Shown: positions 2,833-20,732 of the stretch, in pieces | How the letters are laid out: the number at the start of each line of letters is the position of its first letter | Position numbering within the stretch: the stretch's first letter is position 1 | From: Candidatus Woesebacteria bacterium | GTDB taxonomy: Bacteria; Patescibacteriota; Microgenomatia; UBA1400; PJMF01 | Length of the DNA stretch: 64,000 nt | Assembly (NCBI GenBank): GCA_017999345.1 | Contig: JAGNLY010000003.1 | Coordinates: 4,138 to 68,137, forward strand | Direction: 5' to 3' | Made by a program: the position numbers and the translations under genes | The notes under the pieces: model-generated | Database searches by the model: none | What the model was told of the DNA's origin: nothing | The model's input: only the letters and a program-made list of their open reading frames with translations

Positions 2833-3876
2833 TTATTGTTGTGGAACAACTATTTCGTCAGATTCACTCAAGCCAGAAGTTACTTCAATCAAATCATCTG
2901 TCTCCAATCCAATTTGTATTTCTCTTTCCTCAGATTGATTTTCGCCGGTTTTAACACTGACGTAGTTTTTGTTATCTCTTTGAGTAATTGAAATTGTTGG
3001 AACAGTTAATATATTTTCTTTTGTTTCTAATAAAATATTGATGTCACCATTCATTCCAATTCTTAGCATGTTTCCATTTGCTAATTGATTAAGTGGAAAT
3101 TCGATTGTAAAAGCAGTGCCACTACTTGTTTCTGTACTTGTGTAGGAAACATAATTGACGGTTGTTGATATTGTTTCATCTGGAAATGCATCCAAAACCA
3201 GTTTGGCTTCTTGACCTTCAGAAATGAAAGAAATATCAGATTCATCAACCGCTGCTCTAAAAATTAAAGACTCTGGGTTAACAATTTCAAAATAATCTGA
3301 AGCTAATAATTGTATTCCAGTTACTGCGGTTGGCGAACTTGTTAGAATGCCTTCAAATGGAGCATAAATAGCTGTATTTTTGATGGCAATGTCCTGAATT
3401 TCAACATCAATTACAGTGTTGTTTAAGTCCCATTGATTTTTGTCGACTTCTCTTTGCTCGGTAGTTTCTAGTGGCTTATCTTTAATACTATCGACAGTAT
3501 TTTCCCAATCCCATCTTTCTTTCATGTATAAATTAAGATCTTTTTGGAGACTTTTTGCTAATGCAGCGCCATCAATTGTTGCGATTGTTTGCCATTTTTT
3601 AACTTTTTCGCCTTCTTTAGCGCCTAAATAAACAACTTTTCCTCCAGCAGCAAATCTTAGTCTAGCTTTTTCTTTGGCATCAACGTGTCCTGAAACTTCT
3701 AAAGTTTTATTAATAGTTTGTCGGTTTGGGTTCTCAAAAACTAGCTTTTCGTTATTTTTTGCTGCATTTGATTTAGAAATAGAAATAATCGCTAATATCA
3801 AGATTATTGCTATTACGCTGGAAATTTTCCATCTTTTTTTAATTGTTTTTAATATATTACTGATCATTTTTTTCAT
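2833..3876 (-). CDS. efflux transporter periplasmic-adaptor (HlyD/MacA-like) subunit
   Basis: 347 aa. N-terminal anchor, then barrel-sandwich and beta-barrel style sequence (YAPFEGILT..., GMNGDINILLE). Operon position upstream of the MacB-type ATPase and permease. Confidence 0.65.
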   Translation of the reverse strand: MKKMISNILKTIKKRWKISSVIAIILILAIISISKSNAAKNNEKLVFENPNRQTINKTLEVSGHVDAKEKARLRFAAGGKVVYLGAKEGEKVKKWQTIATIDGAALAKSLQKDLNLYMKERWDWENTVDSIKDKPLETTEQREVDKNQWDLNNTVIDVEIQDIAIKNTAIYAPFEGILTSSPTAVTGIQLLASDYFEIVNPESLIFRAAVDESDISFISEGQEAKLVLDAFPDETISTTVNYVSYTSTETSSGTAFTIEFPLNQLANGNMLRIGMNGDINILLETKENILTVPTISITQRDNKNYVSVKTGENQSEEREIQIGLETDDLIEVTSGLSESDEIVVPQQ

Positions 3877-3916
3877 TTTAACTCTTTCTTTCCACTAAAG
3901 ATTATATCATTTAAGA

Positions 3917-12266: not shown

Positions 12267-12377
12267 AAGCTTAAAATTATCACAATCTGACTTACTTTAG
12301 AATAGTTGTTTAGTTGGGAAAAGAATACTCAAGTATGGTATACTCCTCACACCTTAAGAAAGGGGAATTTATTTTTT

Positions 12378-13493
12378 ATGTCATCTACGAATGATAAATC
12401 AATCAAGAAGCCAAAAACCATGGCTGAGTTATTAGCAAATGCTAGTCACAAAATGGTTATCCCAAAGAAAGGATCTGTCGTTTCAGGCATAATTACATCT
12501 ATTGGAAAGAGATCGCTTGTTTTAGATATCGGTGCCAAAACAGAAGGAATTGTTGTTGATAAAGAATTTGAGAATGCTAAAGAATACGTTAACGAACTAA
12601 AAGTCGGTCAAGTTTTAGAAGCAATTGTTTTTTCAGTTGAAAATGATAGAGGTCAAGTTTTGCTTTCACTTAAAAAAGCAGCAACTGATTCCAAATGGGA
12701 ATACTTTACTGAAGCATTTGAAAAAGAAGAAATTCTTGATGCTAAGGGTTTGGAAGTTAATAAAGGTGGCTTGATCGTTTTGGTCAATGGTACCAGAGGT
12801 TTTGTTCCATCAAGTCAATTCGGCAAAGAATTAGTTGGTAATTTTTCTCAACTAAAAGGCGAAGACATCAAAGTCAGAGTCATTGAAGTTGACAGAGAAA
12901 AAAACCGTTTAATATTTTCTGAAAGACACGTTTCTGAAGCAAAAGAAATTTCTCAAAAAACTGCAGCTCTAGAATCTGTAGAAGTTGGCAAGATCTATGA
13001 AGGTGTTGTCTCTGGAGTTATGCATTTTGGCTTGTTTGTAACTGTTGAAGTTCCAGTTGAAGACAGTAAAAATGTTGGACATGTCGAAGGATTGGTTCAC
13101 ATTTCTGAAATTTCATGGGAAAAAGTTACTCATCCAAAAGATTTCAACGCTGTTGGAGATAGAATTAAAGTTAGAGTTTTGGGAATTGATGAAAAAACTG
13201 GCAAACTTAATCTCTCTGTCAAACAACTTTCAGATGATCCATGGCAATCAATTGCTGACAACTATCAAGTTGGCACAACAGTTGAGGGCACAGTTTCAAG
13301 AATTGAAGCTTTTGGAGCATTTATTAATGTTGAGCCTGGAATTGATGGCTTGATTCATTCAAGTAAATTAGATTCTTCAGTTGAGCTCAAAAAAGGTGAC
13401 AAAATCACTGTCAACGTCGAGAGTGTTGATCCAGATCACAGAAGAATGAGCTTAAGTTTGGTCTTAACAGAAGTACCGGTTGGGTACAAATAA
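12378..13493 (+). CDS. rpsA: 30S ribosomal protein S1 (short, four to five S1 domains)
   Basis: Repeated S1/OB motifs (G.VV.G.I......G..V.V....G..H.S). ATG at 12378 preceded by aaGGGGa. The tracked TTG start at 12306 is less likely. Confidence 0.85.
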   Translation: MSSTNDKSIKKPKTMAELLANASHKMVIPKKGSVVSGIITSIGKRSLVLDIGAKTEGIVVDKEFENAKEYVNELKVGQVLEAIVFSVENDRGQVLLSLKKAATDSKWEYFTEAFEKEEILDAKGLEVNKGGLIVLVNGTRGFVPSSQFGKELVGNFSQLKGEDIKVRVIEVDREKNRLIFSERHVSEAKEISQKTAALESVEVGKIYEGVVSGVMHFGLFVTVEVPVEDSKNVGHVEGLVHISEISWEKVTHPKDFNAVGDRIKVRVLGIDEKTGKLNLSVKQLSDDPWQSIADNYQVGTTVEGTVSRIEAFGAFINVEPGIDGLIHSSKLDSSVELKKGDKITVNVESVDPDHRRMSLSLVLTEVPVGYK

Positions 13494-13518
13494 GACTTTA
13501 GTTATTAGATAGTATAAA

Positions 13519-13619
13519 ATTAGGTGGGTTTAATATTTATTTAGCCTATTGAAGCGCAGATTTAAAATGTTTTGAAAATCTAGCGAAATCGAGATGAATA
13601 AATAATAAACCCACCTAAT
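13519..13619 (-). repeat. imperfect-palindrome element, copy B (inverted relative to copy A)
   Basis: Outer arms attaggtgggttta (13519-13532) / taaacccacctaat (13606-13619). Core 13544-13594 is the reverse complement of the copy A core. Sits directly after the rpsA stop. Confidence 0.7.
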
Positions 13620-13640
13620 ACAAACTAGATAAAAGGAAAT

Positions 13641-13799
13641 ATGGCAAAACAACGAATGATCGTAACCGATGATCAACTACTAATCGATATGGACTTACTT
13701 TTCAACTCTATCAGAGACGCTAATGGCGATTGGGAAAAAGTTGAGCAAGATATGAAAAATTATCTTTCTGCTATTCAATCTATGGTTGGAGAAGAATAA
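13641..13799 (+). CDS. small hypothetical protein (52 aa), below the ORF-track cutoff
   Basis: ATG 13641 preceded by aaAAGGAAat. MAKQRMIVTDDQLLIDMDLLFNSIRDANGDWEKVEQDMKNYLSAIQSMVGEE*. Acidic and helical-looking. The antisense 65-aa ORF is less plausible. Confidence 0.45.
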   Translation: MAKQRMIVTDDQLLIDMDLLFNSIRDANGDWEKVEQDMKNYLSAIQSMVGEE

Positions 13800-13916
13800 C
13801 TTTTTGCGATTACACAGCCAAAAGTGGTTGATACATGATATAATACCCTTAGATTTACCGAAATTAGAGTTGCAATTTATTATAGTTGCCAATTCTAAGG
13901 AAACGAGGATGTTTAT

Positions 13917-14567
13917 ATGACAGAAGCCGAAGAAGTAATCGAAAATAAAGTTTCAGCATACGTAATTACCTGTGGAGACGAAGGTGTCCAAATCAATGAA
14001 GGCATTAGGCTTGGTTTTGTTGGAGCTGGTTTCAAACTAGAAGGTTTCGAAAAAGCAGTAGAAGCCTTAAAATCACTTTTCGTTGGTGAAGACTTGCGTA
14101 TCGCCGCTTCTGAAGAATGCGATTGGATTAAAGAACAACTAGATTTATCAAATTGGGAACAAACAACTGCAAGTTCTCAACAACATATTGAGTCTTTAGC
14201 TGACAAAGTTGGCTTGCTTTATAGTGGTTTTTTACCATTCAAAGATCCAAGAAAATTGAACCATGACATTAAAGGTCACATGGTTAGACCTCATAATATT
14301 CACGTTGCAAATAAAATTTGTTTTACTTTGGCCGGTGGTGAACAAACCTACAACTTAGGTTGCTACTTGGTTAGTGCAGAATGGGTACACAAGGTTTCAC
14401 CTAAAATTGCCAAAAAACTAATTGACGTTCAAGTAGAGTTTTATAAGAAAATTTCCAAGAACGATAATTTAATCTTCACCTTTGAAAAGGGTGGAATTCT
14501 TGGCGAAAAAATTGCTGAGAAAAACGTCAAAGCCTTGAAAAAAATTGGCATCGTTGCTAAAGCATAA
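13917..14567 (+). CDS. hypothetical protein (216 aa), no recognisable family
   Basis: Clean ORF with an upstream AAGGAAACGAGGA. An extended -10 (TGaTATAAT, 13836-13844) lies upstream. Soluble, composition like core genes. Confidence 0.7.
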   Translation: MTEAEEVIENKVSAYVITCGDEGVQINEGIRLGFVGAGFKLEGFEKAVEALKSLFVGEDLRIAASEECDWIKEQLDLSNWEQTTASSQQHIESLADKVGLLYSGFLPFKDPRKLNHDIKGHMVRPHNIHVANKICFTLAGGEQTYNLGCYLVSAEWVHKVSPKIAKKLIDVQVEFYKKISKNDNLIFTFEKGGILGEKIAEKNVKALKKIGIVAKA

Positions 14568-14685
14568 TCTTTTTTTTGAATATTCTTATTTTAATTAGAG
14601 TGGTTTAAAATACTGGATTGTCAATCCTATGGTTGATTTATAGTTAAAAGAAATTACAAATATGTACGATAGTGAGGAGTACGAT

Positions 14686-15510
14686 ATGCAAGCATTAACG
14701 GATAATCAAAAACTTCAACTAAAAATATTAATTAACAATTTAGAAGCAATAGGTAAAGTTCCTGAGGATGTTTTGACTCATGTAAAAGAAAATTTGGTGG
14801 CTCCAACAAATGATTCCTCAATCTGTGTTGACGGTGGTTATACAAAAGAAGAGGCAGCTGGAGAGTTGGCAAGACCTGGAGCTGACTTAGGAATTTCAAT
14901 TGCATTTCTCAAACTTGGGTTTTCACCTGAAGAAGCTTTTTTAACAGTTTATGTTTATCGTCTTAAAAATGGACAAAAGTATGGCTGGCACACAGATACT
15001 CATGTTGATCCCGTTGACGGATCTCAAGCACATTCAGAAGCAATTTGTGGTTGTGGGCACTGCAATATGGCAAAACATAGATCTGGAGAGTACGGAGTTG
15101 ACGGCAACCATGTGCTTGATCATTTAAATATTATTAAAAAACATCAAGCTTCAAATCCGGAAAACATGAGATTTGTTAATTTGGACCGAGATCATCAAGA
15201 GAAGGGTATTTTAGTTATAAATAGCGACCAGGTGACTGTTTCACCTTGGGATAAATTAAAAAATTCACAGTTTTTTGTTTATGATGCTGCAAGAGATGCC
15301 CAGCTTTTGAGAAATATTGTTGAAAGTATAAATAATGATGGAAGAGGTAAAAATGTTACTTTTGAACAATTAAAAGAGGTTGTTGATAATCATACAAAAG
15401 CAACTTTGGGACTGTTGGGTACGAGCAAAGGCAAGCCAATATACAACATTACTGTTAATGGAGATAAATTGATAATTGAGCTAGTTGGCAATGCGCCAAC
15501 AATTGATTAG
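14686..15510 (+). CDS. hypothetical protein with Cys/His cluster (WHTDTH...HSEAICGCGHC)
   Basis: ATG 14686 has GAGGAG 6 nt upstream; the tracked ATG 14662 is in frame but lacks an SD. Motifs CVDGGY, RPGADLG, WHTDTHVD, CGCGHC suggest a metal or active site. Family unknown. Confidence 0.7.
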   Translation: MQALTDNQKLQLKILINNLEAIGKVPEDVLTHVKENLVAPTNDSSICVDGGYTKEEAAGELARPGADLGISIAFLKLGFSPEEAFLTVYVYRLKNGQKYGWHTDTHVDPVDGSQAHSEAICGCGHCNMAKHRSGEYGVDGNHVLDHLNIIKKHQASNPENMRFVNLDRDHQEKGILVINSDQVTVSPWDKLKNSQFFVYDAARDAQLLRNIVESINNDGRGKNVTFEQLKEVVDNHTKATLGLLGTSKGKPIYNITVNGDKLIIELVGNAPTID

Positions 15511-15599
15511 CTGGACTTCATTTTTGCACTAATTTAGCTCTTTAGCTGTTTAAATTCATTTTAGAAATCTGGATAATTTAATCTTTAGTCTTGGTTTTC

Positions 15600-15628
15600 T
15601 TGTACTGTCTGATATATTTTGATATAAT
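15600..15628 (+). promoter_or_regulatory. strong sigma70-like promoter
   Basis: TTGTAC (15600-15605), 17-nt spacer, TATAAT (15623-15628). Confidence 0.6.
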
Positions 15629-15632
15629 GACG

Positions 15633-15850
15633 TGTGCAGAAGAACTTAATTCTTTTGTGGATCTTTAAAAATTTAGTTGGAGGGGAAAAGTTGCTAATTT
15701 TGCTAATTGTGGCAATAAATTTTGGCAAAACGGTGAAAATTCTGCACTGGTTTTTGTCTAAGTTTTTTGGTAATTTTGGTTTCGGTGTAATTGGCGATTT
15801 TTTCCCTCCTACTTTAAAATTGTTTGATAAGGGGGGATACAACCAAAACT
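15633..15850 (+). promoter_or_regulatory. candidate structured 5' leader / riboswitch-like RNA
   Basis: Long-range complementarity: GTGCAGAA (15633-40) with TTCTGCAC (15740-47), and GGAGGGGAAAA (15679-89) with TTTTCCCTCC (15800-09). Lies between a promoter and a terminator hairpin, upstream of a membrane-protein gene. Confidence 0.4.
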
Positions 15851-15881
15851 GAGAATCGCTGCCCAAGTGATTCTCTTTATT
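15851..15881 (+). terminator. intrinsic terminator-like hairpin in leader (possible expression platform)
   Basis: GAGAATCGC-TGCCCAA-GTGATTCTC (9 bp including one G-U) followed by TTTATT. Ends 22 nt before the RBS GAAGGAGG and ATG 15903. Confidence 0.5.
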
Positions 15882-15902
15882 AGATTGCCGAAGGAGGCAA
15901 AA

Positions 15903-16670
15903 ATGGATCTTCTGGGATTGTTAAGATTTGGTTACGAGAACGCTTTGGCAAACGGGTCGGTGCTTTTGGTACCGACTCTGTGCTATGCGATTGCTGCAAC
16001 TCTCCTCGCCATTATATTGGGGTGGGGGAAGATTTTGTTTCAGGAAGTTAATGGGACACTTGTCCTTAAACTTCCAGGTGGCCCTCTGATGGGATCGCTG
16101 CCTTTTGCAGAAATGATTATGCTCGGTTTCGTGTTGGTGCAAAATCCCTTCATGAATGAAGGGATGTCGTTGCTCTGGTTAGGACTCAGTTTCTTTGTAG
16201 TCCTACGCCTCGAGCTGGCGGCATTGACCCACATTTTAGTGTTCTTCGGGTCAATTTATGCAAGGGGCATGGGTGGATACAAGTTTGCTATTGAGTGCAT
16301 GGATGAACGTTGCACCCATGGCATACGAACTGGGAGCTTCCTACACTACTGGGCATGCGGTGGCTTTACGCTACTAACAGCCCTTGGAGTTGCTCCCTTG
16401 ATCCTGCTCCCAGTATTTTTGGGATTGCCGGATGGTGGATTTGGGATTGCGATTCTGATATTTTGTTGCATCCCGTATCCTTTCATTATTGGGAAATTAC
16501 TTGCATCAAGATTTACCGATGACGGGCAAAAGATCGTGAAGGGCGCAGTCGATGTGTGGATGTTCATAACCGAAACGCCTGGATGGCTGATCGGTTGTGT
16601 CACAATGTCCATAGTTGCGCTCCGGTTTATGTTGCCAGGAATCAGCCCTACCAAGCTGAATAACAACTAG
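15903..16670 (+). CDS. polytopic membrane protein, unknown family, GC-rich relative to neighbours
   Basis: ATG 15903 preceded by GAAGGAGGcaaaa. About 6-7 hydrophobic segments. A hand count of 15961-16020 gives 29/60 G+C. Confidence 0.75.
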   Translation: MDLLGLLRFGYENALANGSVLLVPTLCYAIAATLLAIILGWGKILFQEVNGTLVLKLPGGPLMGSLPFAEMIMLGFVLVQNPFMNEGMSLLWLGLSFFVVLRLELAALTHILVFFGSIYARGMGGYKFAIECMDERCTHGIRTGSFLHYWACGGFTLLTALGVAPLILLPVFLGLPDGGFGIAILIFCCIPYPFIIGKLLASRFTDDGQKIVKGAVDVWMFITETPGWLIGCVTMSIVALRFMLPGISPTKLNNN

Positions 16671-16692
16671 TAAAGGTTGGATCAATTAAGTC

Positions 16693-16790
16693 GAACTCGA
16701 TCAGACAGTTTTTAGTCTGCTTCGAGTTCCAAAGTTCACAAAGTAAATTTAAAATTTATTTTTTTTGTGTGTTTTGGAACGAAGCAGACT
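16693..16790. other. three-segment mutually exclusive hairpin region
   Basis: X1 gaactcgatcagac (16693-706), X2 gtctgcttcgagttc (16715-729), X3 ggaacgaagcagac (16776-789). X2 is complementary to both X1 and X3. Confidence 0.5.
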
Positions 16791-17067
16791 TTGTTCGTGT
16801 GTAAATTATTATGGCTAACGCCATAAGGTTTATGCCTTTCAAAGTAGGATGGAAATAATCAAGGGCTTCATTTACAATGCGTATTTGAGGCCCTTTTTTG
16901 TTGATTATTTTTACTGTTGCACATCTCAAACTCTTGTCATATAATATCATTCTGATTGTTCGGGAAACACTCATTTTAGACATTCTATTTATTAAATAAT
17001 AAATAAGAATCCCTCGAAAAAATTCAAAAATAAATAAAGATTGATAAATTTTTAGTGGGTTGATCAA
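16756..17067 (-). CDS. doubtful hypothetical ORF (103 aa)
   Basis: Only ORF in a 425-nt AT-rich gap. No RBS seen, K/I-rich low-complexity sequence. May be non-coding. Confidence 0.2.
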   Translation of the reverse strand: MINPLKIYQSLFIFEFFRGILIYYLINRMSKMSVSRTIRMILYDKSLRCATVKIINKKGPQIRIVNEALDYFHPTLKGINLMALAIIIYTRTKSASFQNTQKK

Positions 17068-17096
17068 ATCTTCTCATTAATAAATTTTTCAGATTT

Positions 17097-17170
17097 GGGC
17101 CCTTAGCTCAGCTGGTCAGAGCGCTTCATTTGCAATGAAGAGGTCAAGGGTTCGACTCCCTTAGGGTCCA
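17097..17170 (+). tRNA. tRNA-Ala, anticodon UGC
   Basis: Acceptor GGGCCCT/AGGGTCC with the G3:U70 alanine identity pair, anticodon stem CTTCA/TGAAG, loop TTTGCAA, T loop GGTTCGACTCC. No encoded CCA. Confidence 0.92.
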
Positions 17171-17220
17171 CAATCTAAGAGGTCAATCAATTATTTACTT
17201 GGATTATTTTTGAACCGAAC

Positions 17221-17790: not shown

Positions 17791-20732
<2,942 letters not shown>

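Follow-up and report, generated by a model that had tools for sequence, protein, structure and literature searches.

Comparative analysis of a 64,000-nucleotide (nt) stretch of a Candidatus Woesebacteria genome (contig JAGNLY010000003.1; this whole stretch is referred to as the window) indicated that the region of about 270 nt between a predicted promoter at position 15600 and ATG 15903, the start codon of a gene for a 255-amino-acid (aa) polytopic membrane protein, is a real, uncatalogued, and conserved cis-regulatory leader RNA, limited to a few lineages of the candidate phyla radiation (CPR). CPR bacteria have tiny genomes, few recognizable regulators, and very few described regulatory RNAs. 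We consider it probable that the RNA is a regulatory leader with two mutually exclusive helices and no aptamer, and it is best classed with attenuators and Shine–Dalgarno (SD)/anti-SD leaders and not as a demonstrated riboswitch. The leader folded at −89.8 kcal/mol, compared with −60.7 ± 4.8 kcal/mol for dinucleotide shuffles (z = −6.1; 0 of 200 shuffles were as good), and one long hairpin, termed A:B after its two arms, dominated the fold. A preliminary description of the sequence had proposed a cis-acting structured leader tied to the membrane-protein gene, and this proposal was borne out by conservation and covariation upstream of the orthologues.

Upstream DNA was retrieved for every homologue of the membrane protein. 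The loci L003 and L004 were identical to the window; the informative set comprised the closest relative (L117), clade I (L009, L010, L012, L015, and L002), clade II (L001 and L017), and clade III (L011, L006, L005, and L007), which amounts to about 10–11 distinct leaders in four clades, a small and phylogenetically clumped sample. The source names of the relatives were Candidatus Woesebacteria and Pacebacteria, both of the CPR. The same plan was found upstream of all homologues with enough flanking sequence (window, L117, L001, L017, L009, L010, L012, L015, L011, and L006), and partial copies were found in L002, L005, and L007. In all leaders, a TGnTATAAT promoter was followed by a small hairpin (P0), a U-rich motif (Z), the A arm, an apex, the B arm, and a U-run, and then by an A/U-rich linker of 9–22 nt, a purine box (C), a strong SD, and the start codon. 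A covariance model (R1) was derived from a seven-leader alignment whose seed contained neither the window nor L006 nor L117, and it scored these three at 48.6 bits (E = 1e-8), 48.2 bits, and 58.2 bits, respectively, with E-values between about 1e-8 and 1e-11 for the set. Searches with R1 and blastn revealed no second leader copy in the 64-kb window, and R1 revealed no extra copy in the other loci. The leader is thus unlike a repeated or mobile element (repetitive extragenic palindrome or miniature inverted-repeat transposable element), as it occurred once in 64 kb and always with the same gene; in L009, it stayed with the gene despite a different upstream neighbour. In the comparison of the window with L117, the halves of the leader were 83–84% identical, whereas the coding sequence (CDS) was 64%, the protein 51%, and the spacer from the upstream gene to the −35 box 60% identical, suggesting that the leader is under stronger constraint than its gene. 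A protein-pattern scan of JGI metagenomes yielded no homologue, and in a DNA-pattern scan (99 stretches), the sole true instance among the 80 loci searched was L038, whose sequence equals that of L009.

The A:B hairpin was the minimum-energy structure of every complete leader, with energies of −28 to −51 kcal/mol, and was no shorter than about 21 bp in any lineage. In the window, the arms form a 25-nt inverted repeat, at the base of which GGAGGGGAAAA pairs with TTTTTTCCCTCC; the general form is GGAGG(GG)AAAA/TTTT(CC)CCTCC. Across leaders, the A core read GGAGG, AGAGG, or GGGGGG followed by AAAA, and the B arm ended in TTTT-CCTCC (or CCTCT) with the U-run directly behind it. Two long-range helices had been proposed from the window alone. 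One of them, GGAGGGGAAAA/TTTTCCCTCC, proved to be real and lies within the inverted repeat; the strands of the other, GTGCAGAA/TTCTGCAC, are complementary, yet this pairing was window-specific and was not used in the predicted fold. In a 10-leader alignment, which was fitted to the covariance model, 96.5% of the cells of A:B were paired and 12 of 20 pairs showed double-sided changes. These values were reached by none of 500 column shuffles, and sliding the partner strand by 1–3 columns reduced pairing to 49–62%. The unfitted analysis agreed with the model-fitted counts: RNAalifold, applied to an ordinary MAFFT alignment of seven leaders from which the window was absent, returned the same helix with compensatory changes in 10 of 20 pairs. 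The core-to-core distance ranged from 36 nt in L011 to 126 nt in the window, and the apex loop from 3 nt in L011 through 8 nt in L117 (CTTGGTTT) to about 89 nt in the window, where the insertion holds the TAATT..TGG direct repeats, TTCTGCAC, and most of a 72-aa open reading frame (ORF). Internal loops depended on the clade: clade III had a 1x1 loop and clade II a 2x2 loop, whereas the window had none. A TT directly after the stem was invariant in 12 of 12 aligned leaders; the U-run that it opens was U4–U5 in clades I and II and only UUU(-AAA) in clade III and the window clade. The U-rich Z motif and GGAGG were followed 6–7 nt later by UUG or GUG in 8 of 10 leaders.

The CCUCC strand of the B arm has a second partner, the C box. 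When the A arm was omitted from the sequence, the CCUCC strand paired with C in 7 of 7 leaders tested, and in the two contigs that lack A (L002 and L005), B:C formed in the fold. The alignment of B:C was set in register manually, with the pairing itself as the guide; in its nine distinct rows, 82% of the cells were paired, the central 5 pairs were paired in 100%, and 4 of 10 pairs showed compensatory changes. The B and C sequences were CUCCUGC/GCAGGAG in clade I, CCUCCUGU with AUAGGAGG or AUGGGAGG in clade II, CUCUUAC/GUAAGAG in clade III, UCCCUCCU/AGGGGGGA in the window, and CCUCCC/GGGAGG in L117. In clade I, the C box (GCAGGAG) complements B (CUCCUGC) better than the A strand (GUUGGAG) does; moreover, the T15810–A15830 pair of the window is C–G in L117, and the B nucleotide concerned is mismatched in A:B in both. 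These two observations suggested that pairing with B is what C is selected for, and that C is not a mere copy of A. Since the CCUCC strand is common to both, A:B and B:C are mutually exclusive, and compensatory changes were found in each. The true ribosome-binding site (RBS) is a further sequence to which the CCUCC strand is complementary. A run of U4–U7 directly after C was observed in L005, L006, L007, and L011, that is, in clade III only.

The 5' end of the leader was marked by a putative promoter. The preliminary description had called it near-consensus. The element was indeed present and conserved, with a perfect extended −10 box (TG plus TATAAT, TGATATAAT), but the −35-like TTGTAC matches the consensus TTGACA at only 3 of 6 positions, so that wording was overstated; the site was absent from the list returned by a consensus scan for promoters and terminators. 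A stretch of 33 nt of the promoter region (GTCTGATATATTTTGATATAATGACGTGTGCAG) showed no difference between the window and L117, the distance between the TGnTATAAT box and the hairpin was unchanged in L009, L010, L012, L015, and L011, and the promoter, including its spacer, was kept at the homologous loci. As a separate observation, the spacer (15606–15622; L001 4822–4838) contains a conserved motif that could serve as an operator or promoter element; it reads CCTATAT(T/G)AGTG in clades I and II (spacers of L009, L010, and L015) and TGATATATTTTGA in L117, L011, and the window itself. Downstream, P0 was kept in L117 with one compensatory change (A–U to G–C), and L009, L010, L012, and L015 carried hairpins of other sequences at its position. 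The Z motif, whose family consensus is TTGTTCNTTAA, was 100% identical in the window and L117. The positions of all features are collected in Table 1.

Table 1. Elements of the leader, its gene, and the 3' hairpin, in window coordinates.
Feature	Position	Strand	Sequence or content	Basis or remark
Putative promoter	15600–15628	+	TTGTAC 15600–15605; 17-nt spacer with TGATATAT; TATAAT 15623–15628 with TG in front (extended −10, TGATATAAT)	read from sequence
P0, small hairpin near 5' end	15636–15658	+	GCAGAAGAA-CUUAA-UUCUUUUGU	minimum-energy folds
Z motif, single-stranded, U-rich, just 5' of the hairpin	15659–15674	+	GGATCTTTAAAAATTT	alignments
A arm, 5' strand	15675–15699	+	SD-like core GGAGGGG 15679–15685; TTG 15691	inverted repeat
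Variable apex, lineage-specific insertion	15700–15788	+	TAATT..TGG repeats; TTCTGCAC	no counterpart in L117
B arm, 3' strand	15789–15813	+	anti-SD-like CCCTCC 15804–15809, then U-rich CTTTAAAATTG	inverted repeat
C box	15830–15837	+	AGGGGGGA	alternative partner of B core 15803–15810
T, terminator-like hairpin	15851–15881	+	GAGAATCGCT-GCCCA-AGTGATTCTC, then TTTATT	consensus scan
SD hairpin	15885–15905	+	SD AGGAGG (15892–15897) in small hairpin TTGCC/GGCAA; ATG 15903	minimum-energy fold
Candidate regulated gene, 255-aa polytopic membrane protein	15903–16670	+	conserved ECMDxRCxHG and HxWACGG	
3' untranslated-region hairpin	16702–16790	+	GTCTGCTTCGAGTTCCAAAG...variable apex...TTTTGGAACGAAGCAGAC	long stem 16714–16790, preceded by CAGAC/GTCTG hairpin

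A possible mode of action was derived from these elements. In the default state, A:B would be formed. Together, Z, GGAGG, and NUG in the 5' arm would make up a complete-looking RBS (pseudo-RBS), and its occupation, most plausibly by a 30S subunit or ribosome and otherwise by an RNA-binding factor, would move the CCUCC strand to C. A base-only swap from A to C that kept the upper stem cost +2.5 to +11 kcal/mol, so that a modest input could tip the balance. The strand swap would alter the RNA next to the polymerase and next to the ribosome. The B:C helix of clade III, with its U-run, would resemble a terminator hairpin; in clades I and II, the U-run follows A:B itself; and in every clade, an anti-SD strand engaged by C would be held away from the true SD. 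Because the switching steps are predicted and the sign of the regulation would be inconsistent across clades, ribosome occupancy as the specific trigger is put forward tentatively, as possible rather than probable.

Several observations weigh against a switching leader of this kind. A:B was more stable than any alternative by 5–10 kcal/mol or more, so the RNA might never switch. In the folds, the true SD was not clearly sequestered in either state, and in the window clade, the separate hairpin T formed in both conformations. The output logic would also differ by clade, with the U-run after A:B in clades I and II and after B:C in clade III. No conserved upstream antiterminator was found, and canonical intrinsic terminators were not enriched in the window (14 found versus 14.8 expected). 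The pseudo-RBS itself is not uniform: at the putative start behind A, L010 has CGG and L009 has CUG, and the A core of L117 is GGGGGG instead of GGAGG. To these points should be added the small sample and the fitted and hand-registered alignments described above; the promoter, the transcript ends, and any switching are, moreover, predictions from sequence comparison.

The main rival to a regulatory leader is a processing or stability element, which we regard as unlikely, though it is the strongest of the alternatives. According to this explanation, the long helices would be cleavage sites for a double-strand-specific (RNase III-type) enzyme or blocks to exonucleases; once the A arm was cut or eroded, CCUCC would fold onto C, forming a protective 5'-terminal hairpin and keeping the anti-SD off the SD. 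Conservation of the helix length and stem base only, with a free apex, is in line with such a role, as are the minimal hairpin of L011 (12+9 bp, closed by a loop of 3 nt) and the lack of aptamer-like anatomy. The B nucleotides that are mismatched in A:B and paired in B:C could serve as a toehold for refolding, and a second conserved long hairpin (about 26 bp, at 9 loci) stands at the 3' end of the gene. The explanation leaves the GGAGG/CCUCC identity, the Z motif, and the U-run unaccounted for, however, and the 5' and 3' hairpins have no sequence in common.

Two further ideas, that CCUCC is a mimic of the 16S rRNA 3' end competing with the 30S subunit for A, C, and the true SD, or that Z, the stem base, and the B–C linker form the pocket of a new riboswitch class, were together judged quite improbable. 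Taken as a rival in its own right, a small-molecule or ion riboswitch of a new class, in which a ligand bound in that pocket would shift the balance between A:B and B:C, appears very unlikely. The preliminary description had suggested an aptamer plus an expression platform. The second half of this suggestion has a counterpart in the leader, since the mutually exclusive helices sharing the CCUCC strand resemble an expression platform; the first half was not supported, as no multi-helix junction or pocket was found. A conserved leader preceding the gene for a transporter-like membrane protein that bears Cys/His motifs would suit a riboswitch, and conserved single-stranded stretches do occur in Z and the B–C linker. 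The structure is nevertheless a single hairpin with a dispensable apex and internal loops that vary by clade, and its invariant positions are mostly Watson–Crick paired, in the base of the hairpin, the rest of the conservation lying in the U-rich flanks; these features argue against a metabolite aptamer. A tertiary contact between Z and the linker was likewise unsupported: a Z-to-linker pseudoknot was considered, but it involved only AU-rich palindromes without usable covariation. No known family matched, so the class could be new. With Rfam 15 at gathering thresholds, only the 23S rRNA, 5S rRNA, and two tRNAs were detected in the window; a permissive scan of 15480–15960 gave only microRNA/U6 noise (E ≥ 2.9, 12–15 bits versus thresholds of 100–211); and no match on the leader was obtained at eight homologous loci. 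The earlier failure to match the leader to a known class was thus confirmed in both the window and these loci.

An independent small RNA (sRNA) gene likewise appears very unlikely. Here, the promoter, P0, Z, and A:B with its U-run would constitute an sRNA of about 100–190 nt with its own terminator, and expression of the membrane-protein gene would depend on read-through or on a different start. Clades I and II fit this picture to some extent, as their A:B stem is followed by U4–U5, comparable to the terminators of upstream genes on the same contigs, and clade I additionally has A-runs in front of the stem. The U-run is just UUU, however, in clade III and the window clade. The element was always linked to and co-oriented with one gene, no conserved downstream promoter was found (a TTGACG-type box occurs in some clades only, and L117 lacks its −10 box), and the covariation of B:C implies that B and C lie on one transcript.

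A small protein or leader peptide, toxin-like or codon-sensing, is scarcely credible and was largely refuted by comparison. The leader of the window does contain a 72-aa ORF (15634–15852), a 53-aa version of it starting from TTG 15691, and a 93-aa ORF. GGAGGGG lies 5 nt before TTG 15691, the product would be hydrophobic, a gene caller annotated the 72-aa ORF in L004, and the NUG is equally spaced in 8 of 10 leaders. The ORF is nevertheless located for the most part in the apex, a segment that L117 and the other leaders lack, and neither the 72-aa nor the 93-aa ORF was conserved among the homologous leaders. The ORFs that start from the NUG after the A core were 5, 7, 15, 17, 21, 21, or 53 codons long or were fused to the main ORF; their peptides were mutually unrelated, and CCTCC was read in all three frames. 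The A-to-B distances differed between leaders by non-multiples of 3, L005 has a stop (TAA) where L007 has CGA, L010 has CGG at the start position, and a 1-nt indel separates the leaders of the window and L117. No conserved short ORF, regulatory codons, or stalling motif in a fixed frame, as expected of a leader-peptide attenuator, was found, nor was a type I toxin indicated, since the 53/72-aa ORF falls mostly within the window-specific insertion and no related peptide is encoded in the homologous leaders. In public gene calls, the main ORF ran upstream through the leader by 47–54 codons (L010 1204–2133, P0007, 309 aa; L117 1144–2028, P0012, 294 aa; also P0014). Among these extended calls are an 'FPPTLK' peptide encoded by the CCCTCC strand and a start codon set within the −10 box; the extensions are probably annotation artefacts.

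A feature acting at the DNA level (an operator or cruciform) or a chance palindrome in AT-rich DNA is hardly tenable: the conserved spacer motif (CCTATAT/TGATATAT) could be an operator and the window apex does carry short direct repeats, but the fold z-score, the conservation above that of the CDS, and the strand-specific model scores (48–112 bits on the + strand versus 16–36 bits on the − strand) speak against it, and the arm spacing of 3 to about 89 nt, together with G–U pairs that were kept on the + strand only, points to RNA and not to an operator. The TAATT(N)TGG repeats, which had been offered as a possible protein operator, are confined to the window-specific apex and are not conserved, so that reading was not supported. 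The preliminary description had also named the findings that would refute its reading or its novelty, namely a lack of conservation upstream of the orthologues, a match to Rfam, and translation of the small ORFs; none of these was encountered.

Other parts of the leader were restricted to the window's own clade. The hairpin with TTTATT, noted from the start, is real; its stem (15851–15875) comprises 10 pairs, and it was the sole terminator-like site within 15000–17200. In L117, it was kept with one compensatory change and an unchanged UUUAU tail. The placement of the SD in the TTGCC/GGCAA hairpin was reproduced in the minimum-energy fold, and the region 15885–15905 was nearly identical in L117. 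Neither T nor the SD hairpin had a counterpart in clades I, II, or III; a strong SD before the aligned start was found in all homologues.

Several additional candidates were considered and rejected. In the window, an antiterminator formed by GCGATTTTT (15793–15801) with the 5' arm of T gave −48.9 versus −67.1 kcal/mol, a cost of 18 kcal/mol, and was not kept in L117. An upstream antiterminator, suggested by the likeness of Z to the 5' part of the B arm, formed duplexes with the A arm that were no better than those of shuffles in 8 of 8 leaders. An internal promoter in the B arm (TTGGCG/TTGACG, 17–18 nt, TAAAAT/TAAATT) was credible only for the window and clade III; clades I and II lack the site altogether, and L117 is without a −10 box. 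CsrA-type GGA sites were discarded because the C boxes of clade III contain no GGA.

The 255-aa protein had no match in Pfam or NCBIfam, and its confident AlphaFold model (predicted local distance difference test score of 88) matched no PDB fold (best E = 3.2). The family comprised 11 clusters in word-indexed searches and 20 matches at E ≤ 1e-3 in a profile search of 1.84 billion cluster representatives, and its distant relatives carried no Pfam domain. From the ECMDxRCxHG and HxWACGG motifs, metal or redox chemistry may be guessed. Downstream of the gene, the long 3' hairpin showed 26 pairs, 10 of them compensatory, at 9 loci. Besides the window, it occurs in L001 (5813–5900), L009 (about 3828–3888), L015 (about 3790–3875), L010, L012, L002, L011, L017, and L117. 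The GTCTG of the small CAGAC/GTCTG hairpin is shared with the long 3' stem. The 3' hairpin was present as a single copy in the window and matched no Rfam family. The gene is thus bracketed by two conserved structured elements.

The gene belongs to an orphan cluster (window 12306–16670; also in L001, L011, L012, L015, and L010), in which proteins of 52–64, 203–216, and 243–284 aa precede the leader and the 255-aa membrane protein. The member of the 243–284-aa class in the window carries HTDTH and CGCGHC motifs, and none of the 52-, 216-, 282-, and 255-aa proteins yielded a sequence match in Pfam, NCBIfam, or the PDB. Clade I has TerC in front of the cluster and, behind it, genes for a CBS-domain protein and an ArsB/CitMHS-type transporter. 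In four lineages (window, L001, L009, and L011), it lies just upstream of tRNA (window 17097–17170) and 23S rRNA (17795–20731) genes. The rRNA genes of the window were 23S and 5S only, with no 16S found, and the rRNA operon may be unlinked. The CPR-type loci L001/L008 (CAZKVV010000003.1) and P0009 (JACKFX010000003.1) are labelled 'Pseudomonadales bacterium', which looks like a taxonomic mislabel of these metagenome-assembled genomes. The DNA-pattern scan also recovered a GC-rich hairpin family unrelated to the leader, TGAACAGGAGGAAAC(A/G)GAG(..)AAAC(A/G)GAG ... CTCYGTTTCCTCCTGTTC. It accounted for about 25 of 81 pattern matches and occurred in JGI soil metagenome contigs of 55–69% GC (L043, L067, L083, L056, L060, L091, L074, L050, L046, and L081, for example); some copies, as in L043, directly precede an ORF that begins like a signal peptide.

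The leader offers a compact and testable example of RNA-based control in the CPR and a starting point for working out what an orphan gene cluster does. It is more conserved than the protein behind it, a membrane protein without known family or fold, and builds two covarying, exclusive helices from SD and anti-SD sequences. If the ribosome-occupancy trigger or a new ligand were to hold, a mechanism would be added. In the case of a sensor of ribosome competition, the level of the membrane protein would be set by free-ribosome or initiation capacity; in the case of a new riboswitch class, a ligand would be linked to a Cys/His-rich membrane protein. Under either of these readings, the leader and the 3' hairpin would form a CPR-specific cassette for post-transcriptional control. 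As a processing or stability element, the leader would still be a new annotated motif, if an ordinary one.

Finally, we compared the leader with known systems; in our searches of the literature for CPR regulatory RNAs and for comparable SD/anti-SD attenuators, nothing specific was found. Like the attenuators of trp, his, and pyrBI and those controlled by TRAP or PyrR, the leader would combine a promoter with a long untranslated region, uses one strand (B) in two helices with a U-run directly after one of them, and contains an RBS-like element. In pyrBI/pyrE attenuation, the sequence of the peptide is irrelevant where ribosome position matters, and here too it would be irrelevant if ribosome position matters. 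Unlike trp and his attenuators, the leader has no conserved peptide or regulatory codons, and unlike TRAP and PyrR leaders, it has no (G/U)AG repeats and no PyrR-box. It further departs from attenuators in that the SD-like box lies within the stem and not upstream of it, the helix that bears the U-run varies by clade, and the dominant helix is far more stable than its rival.

The anti-SD/anti-anti-SD elements of riboswitch platforms, ROSE/fourU thermometers, and ermC share with the leader a series of GGAGG, CCUCC, and GGAGG-like strands in which neighbours can pair, as well as a CCUCC that is complementary to the true RBS. In contrast to such elements, in no leader was CCUCC predicted to pair with the true SD, as it is captured by C. 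An RNA thermometer was not indicated, since a hairpin of −28 to −51 kcal/mol is far too stable for the ROSE/fourU type and the true SD lies outside A:B; ermC differs in having a stalling peptide, of which no conserved form occurs here. With metabolite riboswitches and the cis-regulatory families of Rfam, the leader has in common its position upstream of a membrane/transport-type gene, its structure, its covariation, and its alternative pairing, whereas it differs from metabolite riboswitches in the lack of an Rfam 15 match, of a junction, and of a conserved pocket and in its dispensable apex. The covarying alternative partner of the 3' strand would be needless in a pure stabilizer, and the C boxes of clade III (GUAAGAG) are poor SD mimics when compared with STAB-SD of Bacillus thuringiensis cryIIIA. 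Even so, C in other respects recalls STAB-SD, being an SD-like box with no start codon behind it that would be exposed when A:B is formed. As in 5' stabilizers and leaders processed by RNase III, stable hairpins lie near the 5' end and the helices are long enough for RNase III, and the predicted mRNA also carries a matching long hairpin at its 3' end.

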